Shown piece after piece: positions 10,728-13,714 of a DNA stretch of 64,000 nt. Every line of letters begins with the position of its first letter. Positions within the stretch are counted from its first letter, which is position 1. A model generated the notes under the pieces. It was not told the origin of the DNA. It saw nothing but the letters and a program-made list of their open reading frames with translations, and searched no databases. Source of the stretch: an uncultured Planctomycetota bacterium (GTDB lineage: Bacteria > Planctomycetota > Planctomycetia > Isosphaerales > Isosphaeraceae); contig CAWFXY010000047.1 in assembly GCA_963819805.1 (NCBI GenBank), forward strand, positions 13,040 through 77,039, written 5' to 3'. A program made the position numbers and the translations under genes.

Positions 10728-13094
10728 TCAGGGTACTCTACCCGGCTCGCGGACGGGAACTCGGGCAAGACGGAAGCCGAGGTTCATGGCCTGGACCGTC
10801 GGCGGGAACTTGAAGCGTTCCCCCGCCCGGCAGGCGCAGCTGTTGTCGCGCCAACTGCCGCCCCGGTCCACTCGGCCCGAGCCCTGCGCCGTGTCGGTCC
10901 ATTGCCAGACGTTTCCGTGCATGTCGCACAGACCCAACCTGTTCGGCGGATAGGCCCCCACGCGTGTCGGCCGCGTAAGCCATGGTCCCGCCGGTGCCTT
11001 GCCGAACGGCTCGTTGCCGTTGAAGTTCGCCATTGCCGACGACAGGTCGTTTGTTGGCTTGTCGAAGTAGAAGAGGTACGAGCATTCTTCCTCGGAGGTG
11101 GCTCCGGCCCGACAGGCGTACTCCCATTCCGCCTCACTCGGCAGGCGGTACAAATAACCACACCCGGCCTCTTTTTCATTCAGCTTCTTGATGAACTGAC
11201 GCGTGTCATCCCAGGAAACATTTTCGACCGGAAACAGCTTCAGCTCTTCATCGGAGATCTCCAGAACCCAATTCCTGCCGCCGTTCGCGCGAGAGAACCA
11301 ACTTGGGTTGTTGCCCGTGATCGCCTCCCACTGCCCTTGCGTCACGTTGTGTAGCGCGATCTCGAAGTCCTCCGTGATCTCCGTCTCTTTCGCCGAACCC
11401 GGCGTCCCATCCCAGCCCATGTAGAAGGTCCCCTTCGGCAGACGTACGAACGTCATCAATACGCTGTCATCGCGATCCCGCACCGCAGCGGGCGGTGAAC
11501 AGCCCTTGCGGCCGATGGTCGCCTCCCGGCCCGGTTCCAGCCGTTCCTTATGCAAGTCGGACATGAAGACGATCTGCAGGTGCGCAACCGCGGCCAGGGT
11601 CAGGCGGTCGTCGGGATAGAGTAGCGTTTGCGGCACCGCTCGGACGCCGTCGCCGCGGGCGGAGCGCAGCTTGACGGCGCCGCGTGCCTCCAGGATCATG
11701 GCGGCCGGAATAGTTCGGTCCAAGTTGCGGTTCACGTTTTCGATGGCCGCAAGCAGCTCTTCGCGCAGCTCCGGTTGATTGGAAAACTCGATGGGGATGC
11801 GCCGCTCGGCGTCGTTGAGAATCTGCCGGGCGGTTGTGGTGTTGCCCGCCTGAATGTCTTTGATGCGGAAGATTCCCACCAGGAAGTCGCGCGCCTTCCT
11901 GGCCTTGTCCGCTTCCCGCTGCGCCTTCTTCTCCCGGTCCAGAGCAACGACGGACAGAGCCGACAGGCCGACAATCGCCAGCAGCACTACGCCCAGGAGC
12001 GCCGCGAGCGCCGGCCGCCGCCGCGCCCATTTCCAGGTGCGCTCCGTCGCTCCGACCGCACGCGCCCGGATCGGCTCGCCCGCCTGGAACAGCCGGAGGT
12101 CGTTAGCCAGGTCCTCGGCGCTGGCGTAACGACGCCCCGGCACCTTGTGCAGGCACTTCAGGCAGATCGTCTGCAGGTCGCGCGGCACCCTTACCCCCCG
12201 GCGCGACGGCGGCAGCGGGTCTCGCTCCAGCACTTGCTGCATCGTTTCGAGGGCCGTTTCTGCATAGAACGGCGGCTGGCCCGCCAGGCACTCGTACAGC
12301 AGCGCCCCCAGGCCATGCACGTCGGTCGCCGGTCCTGTGTCGTGGACCTTGCCGGCCGCCTGCTCGGGCGCCATGTACGATGCCGTGCCCATGATCGCAC
12401 CCGACTGGCTCAGGTCGCGGGCCTCGGCGTCGATGCGCTTGGCTAGACCGAAGTCGGTGATCTTCGCCAGACGCTCCGGCCCAGTCAGCAGCACGTTGCC
12501 CGGCTTCAGGTCGCGATGGACCACCCCACGCAGATGCGCGTAGTGCATCGCCCGCGCCAGCGTCTCGATCAACCCGGCGCCCTCGAGCGGGGTGGGCCGC
12601 TGCTTCTTCCACTGCTGTGCGAGCGTGCCGCCGTCGCAGAACTCCAGCGAGAAGAACGGCTGGCCACGCACCTCGCCTGCCTCGTATAGTTGCACGATAT
12701 GCGTGTGTTGCAGGCGGGCCACCGCTTCCGTCTCGATCTGGAAGCGCAGCCTATCGGTTGGGCTGGCGTGCTCAAAGGCGAGGATCATCTTCAGCGCCAC
12801 GATGCGATTGGGCTGGAGCTGCCGGGCCTTGTAAACGACCGCCATGCCGCCGCGGCCCAACTCCCCCTGGATCTCGTAGCCAGGCACCGCGGGCAGGGCG
12901 CCCTGGGGAGCGGCAGCTTCGGACCGCGGCGCGCCGAGCGGGGGCAGGTCCGGTGTCGGTTCCGTCAGCCGTTGCAGCGCGTCTCTGCAGTCGGGGCAAT
13001 CCCAGAGATGGGCGTCGGCCTCGAGCAGCTCGTCGTCGGGCAGTGTGCCGCCCAAAAGCCGGCGGATCTGCTCGTCGCACAGGTGCGTGCTCAT
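10728..13094 (-). CDS. Ser/Thr protein kinase with N-terminal H-x3-C-x2-C motif, one TM helix and C-terminal FGE-sulfatase (SUMF1-type) domain
   Basis: 788-aa intact ORF. The motif AHLWDCPDC covers codons 28-36. Hanks motifs are GRGGMAVVYKA, HRDLKPGNVLL, DFGLAK and SYMAPE. The TM segment is ALAALLGVVLLAIVGLSALSVVAL. The C-terminal domain shows RLPSEAEWEYACRAG...HGNVWQWT...RGGSW. Confidence 0.9.
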   Translation of the reverse strand: MSTHLCDEQIRRLLGGTLPDDELLEADAHLWDCPDCRDALQRLTEPTPDLPPLGAPRSEAAAPQGALPAVPGYEIQGELGRGGMAVVYKARQLQPNRIVALKMILAFEHASPTDRLRFQIETEAVARLQHTHIVQLYEAGEVRGQPFFSLEFCDGGTLAQQWKKQRPTPLEGAGLIETLARAMHYAHLRGVVHRDLKPGNVLLTGPERLAKITDFGLAKRIDAEARDLSQSGAIMGTASYMAPEQAAGKVHDTGPATDVHGLGALLYECLAGQPPFYAETALETMQQVLERDPLPPSRRGVRVPRDLQTICLKCLHKVPGRRYASAEDLANDLRLFQAGEPIRARAVGATERTWKWARRRPALAALLGVVLLAIVGLSALSVVALDREKKAQREADKARKARDFLVGIFRIKDIQAGNTTTARQILNDAERRIPIEFSNQPELREELLAAIENVNRNLDRTIPAAMILEARGAVKLRSARGDGVRAVPQTLLYPDDRLTLAAVAHLQIVFMSDLHKERLEPGREATIGRKGCSPPAAVRDRDDSVLMTFVRLPKGTFYMGWDGTPGSAKETEITEDFEIALHNVTQGQWEAITGNNPSWFSRANGGRNWVLEISDEELKLFPVENVSWDDTRQFIKKLNEKEAGCGYLYRLPSEAEWEYACRAGATSEEECSYLFYFDKPTNDLSSAMANFNGNEPFGKAPAGPWLTRPTRVGAYPPNRLGLCDMHGNVWQWTDTAQGSGRVDRGGSWRDNSCACRAGERFKFPPTVQAMNLGFRLARVPVREPGRVP

Positions 13095-13714
13095 GGCAAC
13101 GCACCGTTTCCAACGGACATGGGAGACTCAGCCTGCCCTTCCTCTTCCAGCAGCCGGCGGACCCGGTCGCGCGCCTTGTACACGCCCGAGAGCGTCATGC
13201 CGAGGTCGCGGGCCACCTCGCGGACCTCCTGACCCTGGAGGAATGTCCGGGTGAAGGCCTCCCAGGTGTGCGGTTGCACGCGGCCGCGGACGCGGGCACA
13301 GACCTGCTCGGTGCGCTCGCAGTCGGCCCGGAATTCCTCGTCGAGCTCGCCGGCCAGCTCGTCAACGCTGACGGGGTCGGGCCAGCACTTCAGGACGTCG
13401 CCGGCCGGCTGGCCGGGGCGCTGCAGTCGGGCAAAGTCCACGACCTCGTTGCCGACGACCCGGCGAAGCCAGCCGCGGAAGCTGCCGGGGGCGTTCCGAC
13501 GGTATACCCCGCGGGCCAGCCCGACGACGAGCTTGTGCAGCACGCGCGAAGCGACCTCCTCGGCATCGTCCGCTTGGAGCCGGCGGCACCAGCGGAGAAT
13601 GCGCGGCCGGTAGCGTACGACGAAGACCCGCCACGCCTCCTCGTTGCCGCCGACCGCCAGGTGGGGCAACAGCAGCGAGGTCGCCAGTTCCGCGGGGTCG
13701 GGGGCCTCATTCAT
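13091..13714 (-). CDS. ECF-type RNA polymerase sigma-70 family factor
   Basis: 207-aa intact ORF. Region 2-like segments are EEVASRVLHKLV and FRGWLRRVVGNEVVDFAR. The region 4 HTH is EVARDLGMTLSGVYKARDRVRRLL. The stop overlaps the kinase start (ATGA, 13094-13091). Confidence 0.8.
   Translation of the reverse strand: MNEAPDPAELATSLLLPHLAVGGNEEAWRVFVVRYRPRILRWCRRLQADDAEEVASRVLHKLVVGLARGVYRRNAPGSFRGWLRRVVGNEVVDFARLQRPGQPAGDVLKCWPDPVSVDELAGELDEEFRADCERTEQVCARVRGRVQPHTWEAFTRTFLQGQEVREVARDLGMTLSGVYKARDRVRRLLEEEGQAESPMSVGNGALP

Follow-up and report, generated by a model that had tools for sequence, protein, structure and literature searches.

The 64,000-nucleotide stretch analysed here at its full length (the window), part of contig CAWFXY010000047.1 of an uncultured soil planctomycete of the Isosphaeraceae, carries on its reverse strand a gene for a sigma factor of the extracytoplasmic function (ECF) type followed by a gene for a receptor Ser/Thr kinase. 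From the N to the C terminus, the kinase consists of a 44-residue module with the pattern H-x24-H-x3-C-x2-C, a proline-rich linker, a Hanks-type kinase domain, one transmembrane (TM) helix and an FGE-fold domain. In this study, we report that residues 1-44 of the kinase are, as judged by sequence comparison and structure modelling, a genuine homologue of the domains of class I zinc-binding anti-sigma (ZAS) factors. We consider it somewhat probable, given this homology and the modelled fold, that the receptor kinase is the anti-sigma factor or tether of its own sigma, the two genes forming one signalling unit. The features of the locus, in positions of the window, are the following:

13091-13714, reverse strand: ECF sigma factor gene, an open reading frame (ORF) of 207 amino acids (aa), with sigma-2 at about residues 32-98 and sigma-4 at about residues 152-188
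10728-13094, reverse strand: receptor Ser/Thr kinase gene, 788 aa, from the ORF and its domain matches
13091-13094, reverse strand: ATGA overlap of the sigma stop codon (TGA) and the kinase start codon (ATG), read off the sequence; a signature of translational coupling
12963-13094, reverse strand: ZAS-type anti-sigma-like module, kinase residues 1-44, predicted from the zf-HC2 match, profile matches and AlphaFold2
12987-13010, reverse strand: H-x3-C-x2-C signature HLWDCPDC, kinase residues 29-36, read off the sequence
12879-12962, reverse strand: proline-rich linker, kinase residues 45-72, with 9 prolines in 28 residues, predicted disordered (AlphaFold2 predicted local distance difference test, pLDDT, below 50)
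12114-12878, reverse strand: Hanks-type kinase domain, residues 73-327 (Pkinase, E 3e-45)
11943-12017, reverse strand: single predicted TM helix, about residues 360-384, ALAALLGVVLLAIVGLSALSVVAL, the sole strongly hydrophobic 19-residue segment (Kyte-Doolittle mean 2.7)
10761-11453, reverse strand: FGE-fold (SUMF1/PvdO/GldK-like) domain, residues 548-778 (PF03781, E 2e-35, full-length profile coverage), the presumed extracytoplasmic sensor
13556-13567, reverse strand: acidic sigma-2.2 motif DAEE, sigma residues 50-53, aligned column for column with the DAED of Mycobacterium tuberculosis SigE
13778-13803, reverse strand: conserved promoter-like element AGAACGAAACCGTTGGACGCGCCGAC, 26 nucleotides (nt), 64-89 nt 5' of the sigma ATG

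The first-pass annotation of this DNA, which was made from the letters alone, had described the overlap of the two genes, the position of the H-x3-C-x2-C motif, the order of the domains and the lack of a separate anti-sigma gene, and all four descriptions were borne out. The ATG within the ATGA is the only in-frame ATG 5' of the kinase domain. No other anti-sigma candidate lies beside the sigma gene, which is overlapped by the kinase gene on one side and flanked on the other by a divergent DUF1559/N_methyl gene (13808-14926, forward strand). The same annotation had spoken of partner switching, a wording that we do not retain since no anti-anti-sigma-like gene is present at the locus.

The relationship of the module to anti-sigma factors was seen at several levels of comparison. 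Pfam zf-HC2 (PF13490) matched residues 14-37 with 18.1 bits in the whole protein, under its cutoff of 22.2, and with 23.4 bits (E 6e-5), above the cutoff, when residues 1-80 were searched alone. None of the 120 listed kinase homologues is annotated with zf-HC2, because the whole-protein score falls short of the cutoff. We made a module profile from the N-termini of seven diverse kinases and compared it with every sequence in the PDB; five matches were significant, each of them a solved anti-sigma factor: DdvA, as its N-terminal domain (8RLZ, E 1e-7) and at full length (8ROT, E 4.5e-6), RslA (3HUG, E 2e-5) and ChrR (2Q1Z and 2Z2S, E 3e-4), with RsiW next at 0.08. The deposited chain of the DdvA N-terminal domain has 90 residues, of which 21-64 align with the module. 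As to the motif itself, it occurs twice in the six frames of the window, and a shuffled sequence holds about 1.9 copies at arbitrary places; both window copies stand ahead of a kinase domain, within the N-terminal extension of a Hanks kinase encoded after a sigma gene of the same family.

The H-x3-C-x2-C at the HLWDCPDC site is invariant in 16 of 16 full-length orthologues, as the first-pass annotation would lead one to expect, and in all 43 aligned modules. In the alignments of 9 and of 43 N-termini, H29, C33 and C36 never vary, and a fourth column, 25 residues upstream of H29, always holds H or C. These four conserved ligand positions, together with the DdvA, RslA and ChrR matches, substantiate the ZAS relationship first read from the motif. 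The putative zinc ligands are thus H4, H29, C33 and C36. C6, which lies near the first of them and had been noted at the outset, is replaced by G in three orthologues, so H4 is the likelier one. The ChrR region around H6 (RHHVSD) aligns with the profile stretch STHPSD, which contains the column of this first ligand.

An AlphaFold2 model of the module, computed from the 43-sequence alignment, contains helices at residues 7-15, 20-32 and 34-44 (pLDDT 76-88), which form a three-helix core. Its six best Foldseek matches in the PDB are to RslA, ChrR and RsiW, with a root-mean-square deviation of 1.0 A over 36 columns for RslA and E-values above 1. The second model, that of a paralogous module of the window (59343-59732), gave the same picture, with anti-sigma structures as the top matches. 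The anti-sigma helical bundle foreseen in the first-pass annotation was therefore recovered as to its three-helix core; helix 4 is absent. In many relatives of the module, helix 3 is followed by a conserved DSFLGKVRAA segment, and in the window's second module two extra helices of low confidence were predicted at residues 51-58 and 65-78. As modelled, the module of the 788-aa kinase is a truncated form.

The sigma factor scored 45.3 bits against NCBIfam TIGR02937 (sigma70-ECF; cutoff 42.9) and 25.3 bits against Pfam Sigma70_r2 (cutoff 24), with a weak match to Sigma70_r4_2, and its closest PDB sequence is M. tuberculosis SigE. The DAED motif of sigma-2.2 is a contact to the beta-prime clamp of RNA polymerase. 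At the position of the DAEE of the window sigma, relatives with 32-43% identity have DAED, DADD or DAQD, and the motif is acidic in every family member examined. In ECF43, ECF59 and the old ECF60, the acidic DAED is replaced by an uncharged serine or threonine (PMC8103513, PMC8999054, PMC13147305). These kinase-linked groups regain the lost charge through phosphorylation and typically have no anti-sigma factor (PMC7826278, PMC8103513, PMC8999054, PMC13147305). We looked for this replacement and found DAEE in its place; the neighbouring gene encodes a kinase, but one that bears an anti-sigma-type domain. From its sequence, the window sigma does not look like a phospho-activated factor of the ECF43 type, and the rationale known for phospho-activation is missing. 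With the acidic motif for core binding retained, it should be competent at all times if nothing holds it, and a negative regulator is therefore to be expected.

The catalytic motifs of the kinase domain are all present: the G-loop GRGGMAVV (80-87), VALK (99-102), HRDLKPGN (193-200), DFG (214-216) and APE (242-244). The best solved relatives of the C-terminal FGE-fold domain are T. denticola variable protein 1, PorK/GldK and PvdO, behind which the true FGEs rank. A true FGE enzyme as the working assumption for this domain was consequently rejected, the nearest solved relatives being non-enzymatic or otherwise functioning proteins, and the domain is treated as a sensor. In two other loci (L038, 2005-4726; L068, 5407-7411) a single ORF links an ECF sigma via a TM helix to an extracytoplasmic part that ends in an FGE-fold domain closely like that of the window kinase, which is there wired straight to sigma with neither kinase nor anti-sigma module.

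The coupling of sigma, module and kinase was followed from both genes. A metagenome scan with sigma gave 18 loci, the close ones with the same arrangement, and the sigma/kinase pair is present in all orthologues. Among ten sigma relatives with 32-43% identity, nine adjoin a module kinase, eight of them with the kinase downstream and one (L088) with the kinase divergently adjacent; none was found at L083. In eight of the ten, the next ORF opens with a module of the type [H/C]...H-x3-C-x2-C and runs into a kinase where the contig is long enough. On reading the frames, we found the 4-nt start/stop overlap again in orthologous loci, and three distant pairs (L090, L091 and L092) share it.

With the kinase as query, a genome scan returned 77 loci; these, together with the module-kinase contexts from an exhaustive profile search, yielded 15 module-bearing lineages. 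The sigma gene lies immediately upstream in six of them and one gene away or at the head of an array in two; it is not in view in the other seven. A sigma of the same family is thus adjacent or in the array in 8/15 module lineages vs 1/33 module-less kinases (Fisher p=1e-4). If any ECF is counted, the figures are 8/15 vs at most 4/33 (Fisher p=0.004), the three to four ECFs upstream of module-less kinases including two of the unrelated PF07638 type. The co-occurrence of the module with ECF genes, proposed at the outset, therefore appears as an enrichment over module-less kinases, and the unit of sigma and module kinase is kept down to 32% sigma identity. In addition, the module precedes varied sensors (FGE, WD40, HEAT, NHL/PEGA, DUF1080 and LRR), and kinase plus FGE bodies 73-79% identical to the window kinase, which start with a short unstructured leader (VDETHSAD...), have neither module nor sigma. 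Since bodies and sensors are swapped and nearly identical module-less bodies lack a sigma, the module follows sigma and not the kinase body. Pairwise distances of sigma and module were correlated with a Pearson r of 0.93, against 0.75 for sigma and the kinase domain (16 pairs); the statistic is inflated by orthologue clusters and co-inheritance and is supportive only. For cognate ECF/anti-sigma pairs r=0.82 has been reported, with 0.5-0.6 in controls (PMC7406223).

Regarding the census, a word-indexed protein search with the module profile gave short fragments only (truncated kinase N-termini and small ZAS proteins), and the exhaustive profile search was used instead. It retrieved 35,299 cluster representatives at E<=0.001 among 1.84 billion proteins, most of which are ordinary anti-sigma-like proteins. 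A Hanks kinase domain is found in 37 of the top 150 matches, and among the rest are many more that represent truncated pieces of kinases of this kind; the module-kinase architecture is frequent in databases. Some proteins have several modules: P0150, P0151, P0153, P0154, P0155 and P0159, as well as P0152, P0156, P0157 and others, are either kinases with 2-5 N-terminal tandem zf-HC2 modules at a spacing of about 52 residues or non-kinase proteins built from 3-5 modules, with a length of about 390 aa.

Several further arrangements were observed. The window itself contains a second pair (57381-60965, forward strand), formed by a sigma gene (57381-57974), an NHL-repeat/PEP-CTERM gene (58483-59313) and a module kinase gene (59298-60965). 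The motif of the latter is HLESCDSC (59436-59459), its kinase domain is split between frames and resumes at 60148-60564, and region 2.3-2.4 of the sigma looks out of frame, so the second pair represents either pseudogenes or assembly frameshifts. Related loci of nanopore-derived metagenome-assembled genomes (MAGs) have frameshifts as well. One sigma is followed by two module kinases with different sensors in L102 (1798-8741), two tandem module kinases stand with no sigma in view in L096 (85-5886), and the whole sigma-kinase pair is tandemly duplicated in L017 (3638-10357); these arrays suggest that several kinases may share one sigma. In other loci, a PF07638-type ECF precedes a kinase with another N-terminal extension, of about 80 residues in L019 (3013-3845) and short in L069 (3083-3607), and in L013 (6894-9463) a sigma of the window type lies upstream of a kinase whose N-terminus resembles a zinc ribbon (CxxC...CxxC) and has no H-x3-C-x2-C.

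The promoter-like element AGAACGAAACCGTTGGACGCGCCGAC upstream of the sigma gene occurs once in the window, where 0 copies are expected from chance. Its core pattern, GAACGAAA-N11-GCCGA, was found 5' of sigma in 9 fetched orthologous loci, including both tandem copies of L017, and the element was also aligned in L001 and L081 with one or two changes. The DNA farther upstream is unrelated between loci, and a conserved GAAGG-type ribosome-binding stretch stands right before the sigma ATG. Judging from its sequence and conservation, we infer that the element is a candidate autoregulated ECF-type promoter. There are no further copies in the 64 kb that could point to a regulon, and at the three distant loci examined (L074, L084 and L085) the pattern GAAC-N14-19-CG[AT]C had no match within 160 nt 5' of sigma.

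Taken together, these data outline a possible mode of action. At rest, the module would bind sigma and so hold it at the membrane, out of reach of RNA polymerase; the contact would most likely be made with domain 4 of sigma, as in the RslA structure 3HUG. On sensing a signal, the extracytoplasmic FGE-fold domain would switch the kinase, and phosphorylation of the module-linker part or of sigma would change the affinity and release sigma, which, once free, would transcribe from AGAACGAAACCGTTGGACGCGCCGAC upstream of its own gene. The homology of the module and the conserved coupling of the genes are solid, and it is the binding of sigma and the phosphorylation step that we infer from the sequences. 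Such a system would combine two known kinds of ECF regulation, by anti-sigma and by kinase, and is best filed as a combination of both.

It must be noted that several points weigh against an anti-sigma role of the receptor kinase. One of them is the absence of helix 4, in whose place the model has the linker (45-72), with no secondary structure, running straight into the kinase domain. In class I anti-sigma factors this helix covers sigma regions 2.1/2.2 and carries most of the predicted contacts to sigma-2 (PMC7406223). Because it is missing, an occlusion of sigma region 2 would need membrane tethering, the bulky kinase domain or phosphorylation, and not the canonical clamp. The position equivalent to D11 of RseA, an acidic contact in helix 1, is G15 in the window module and variable across the family according to our reading of the alignment. 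All Foldseek E-values for the two module models exceeded 0.3, the domain being short. Finally, no sigma was found in the visible DNA of 7/15 module-bearing lineages (L072a/b, P0190, P0234, L099, L104 and L096b), so the module can persist with no sigma adjacent, and the inflation of the co-divergence value belongs here too. The interpretation given in the first-pass annotation consequently stands in part: the homology of the module, the conserved unit, the enrichment of ECF genes and the acidic sigma-2.2 are in its favour, but the missing helix 4 and the lineages lacking a sigma are not.

These same observations bear on the other explanations. That the motif arose by chance, or lies in a non-translated or non-functional leader upstream of a wrongly placed start codon, is very improbable and was rejected. 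The motif is short, its whole-protein Pfam score is under the cutoff and zf-HC2 is absent from the 120 annotated homologues; nevertheless, every full-length orthologue and the distant pairs have kept it, both window copies sit in the N-terminal extension of a kinase placed after a sigma, the module profile reaches E 1e-7 against a solved anti-sigma factor, and the sole upstream in-frame ATG is that of the ATGA. A further explanation is that the module only docks sigma, recruiting it as a substrate of the kinase with no inhibition, so that phosphorylation outside sigma-2.2 would activate it as in EcfP/PknT and EcfK/PknS. Pairs of ECF and kinase are an established paradigm (PMC7826278, PMC13147305). 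Phosphorylation of EcfK is not confined to sigma-2.2 but also occurs at sites in its linker, and in PknS, too, a bundle of 3-4 helices precedes the kinase domain at the N-terminus (PMC13147305). The intact motifs of the window kinase agree with this, and a module lacking helix 4 fits a binding that does not block access to the core enzyme. We regard docking as unlikely, though by no means negligible, since the sigma keeps its acidic DAEE and offers no rationale for phospho-activation, no conserved serine or threonine position was identified in it, and the module is homologous to inhibitory domains.

Slightly less likely in our opinion is a zinc finger that has nothing to do with sigma, that is, a structural, redox-sensing, zinc-sensing or oligomerisation element which regulates the kinase, the link to sigma being operonic or made by phosphorylation with no binding to the module. 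It would account for the roughly one half of the module-bearing kinase lineages with no nearby sigma and for the 2-5 tandem modules of some kinases and the 3-5 of non-kinase proteins, which are hard to square with one-to-one binding of sigma; moreover, zinc motifs of membrane anti-sigma factors can be purely structural (PMC7406223). It does not explain, however, the strong enrichment beside one sigma family (p=1e-4), the retention of the module while sensor domains and kinase bodies are swapped, or a co-divergence with sigma that is tighter than that of the kinase domain. The orphan copies, in addition, often stand in tandem arrays of which at least one (L102) is led by a sigma.

An anti-sigma or tethering role of the receptor kinase can be placed among known systems. 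The class I ZAS anti-sigmas (ChrR, RslA, RsiW and RsrA/RshA) share with it a cytoplasmic three-helix bundle at the N-terminus, in which an H/C ligand lies upstream of the H-x3-C-x2-C, and a gene located immediately downstream of that of the ECF sigma, often overlapping it; RsiW and RslA have in addition a membrane anchor and an extracytoplasmic domain. Unlike them, the window protein is devoid of helix 4, has a full Hanks kinase between the module and the TM helix and shows no sign of a regulated-proteolysis architecture. DdvA of Myxococcus xanthus (8RLZ, 8ROT), to which the module is most similar in sequence (E 1e-7), likewise has its ZAS domain at the N-terminus of a large TM protein with an enzyme-type domain at the other end, and is co-encoded with the ECF sigma DdvS (PMC6061681). 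In DdvA, however, the fused domain is a CHAT protease and not a kinase, and the protein belongs to another phylum and to the control of CRISPR-Cas (PMC6061681).

The ECF43 pairs EcfP-PknT of Vibrio parahaemolyticus and EcfK-PknS of Xanthomonas citri are similar in that the neighbour of the ECF sigma is a receptor Ser/Thr kinase that crosses the membrane once and whose extracytoplasmic sensor varies. In PknS, moreover, a helical region of about 80 residues stands ahead of the kinase domain; this N-terminal part (81 residues, a bundle of 3-4 helices) was left uninterpreted in the 2026 structural paper (PMC13147305). In contrast to the window sigma, which keeps DAEE, ECF43 sigmas are without the acidic DAED; phosphorylation of the threonine that replaces it activates them, and they have been described with no anti-sigma (PMC7826278, PMC8103513). 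In M. tuberculosis, the Hanks kinase PknB phosphorylates the ZAS anti-sigma RshA, whereby SigH is freed, and acts likewise on RseA/SigE (PMC8999054, PMC13147305). There, kinase and anti-sigma are separate and not co-encoded, whereas the window protein is one polypeptide, a fusion of the Rosetta-stone type. Anti-sigma and protein kinase also reside in one protein in RsbW/SpoIIAB (PMC7406223 for RsbW), but these are kinases of the GHKL fold whose targets are group 3 sigmas and whose phosphorylation substrate, in true partner switching, is an anti-anti-sigma. They are homologous neither to the module nor to Hanks kinases, and the window locus has no anti-anti-sigma. In the literature searched, no published description of the zf-HC2/ZAS-kinase architecture was found; an earlier mention may exist.

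ECF sigmas and Hanks kinases are two main signalling systems of bacteria, and a sigma family that keeps its charged motif and is nonetheless paired with module kinases would represent a second, mechanistically different coupling of both. The locus also offers a natural fusion in support of the PknB-RshA-SigH logic of mycobacteria. It is conceivable, and we propose it tentatively, that the planctomycetes have a widespread, unrecognised class of receptor kinases which are the anti-sigmas of one ECF family. In these, the truncated ZAS module would sequester sigma at the membrane, a kinase with interchangeable sensors (FGE-fold, WD40, HEAT, NHL or DUF1080) would free it by phosphorylation, and several kinases, in sigma-led arrays and as dispersed orphans, would share one sigma as an integration hub. 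If this is true, the textbook division into anti-sigma-regulated and kinase-regulated ECFs is not clean, and further ECF-linked kinases with an uninterpreted helical N-terminus, PknS among them, may have sigma-binding modules too. Such a class is probably under-counted, because standard domain annotation misses the module. For the kinases of the Planctomycetota, a repertoire both very large and unexplored, the 45-residue module and its sigma provide a handle that is simple and can be tested.

With respect to distribution and expression, the closest relatives of the kinase (82-97% identity) come from soil MAGs of the Isosphaerales/Isosphaeraceae. Soil metatranscriptome contigs with about 90% identity cover parts of sigma and of the kinase domain, and one piece of 91 nt within sigma has a single mismatch. 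None of these contigs is usable across the sigma/kinase junction, so they lend no support to co-transcription.

Insertion-sequence remnants were found past the DUF1559/N_methyl gene and past the kinase gene. At 7911-9575 (reverse strand), an IS3-family transposase (rve/rve_3, with a small orfA at 8966-9265) abuts an 86-aa fragment of an IMS/DinB-type polymerase (9315-9575), a gene that appears to have been cut off by the insertion. An IS256-type gene (Transposase_mut; 15061-16442, forward strand) is divided into two ORFs (15061-15633 and 15690-16442) and is probably inactivated or frameshifted. The window contains two more Hanks kinases, one of 1320 aa with WD40 propellers (16514-20476, forward strand) and a shorter one (24851-26299, reverse strand). 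Both lack the zinc module as well as an upstream sigma, and they serve as internal negative controls.

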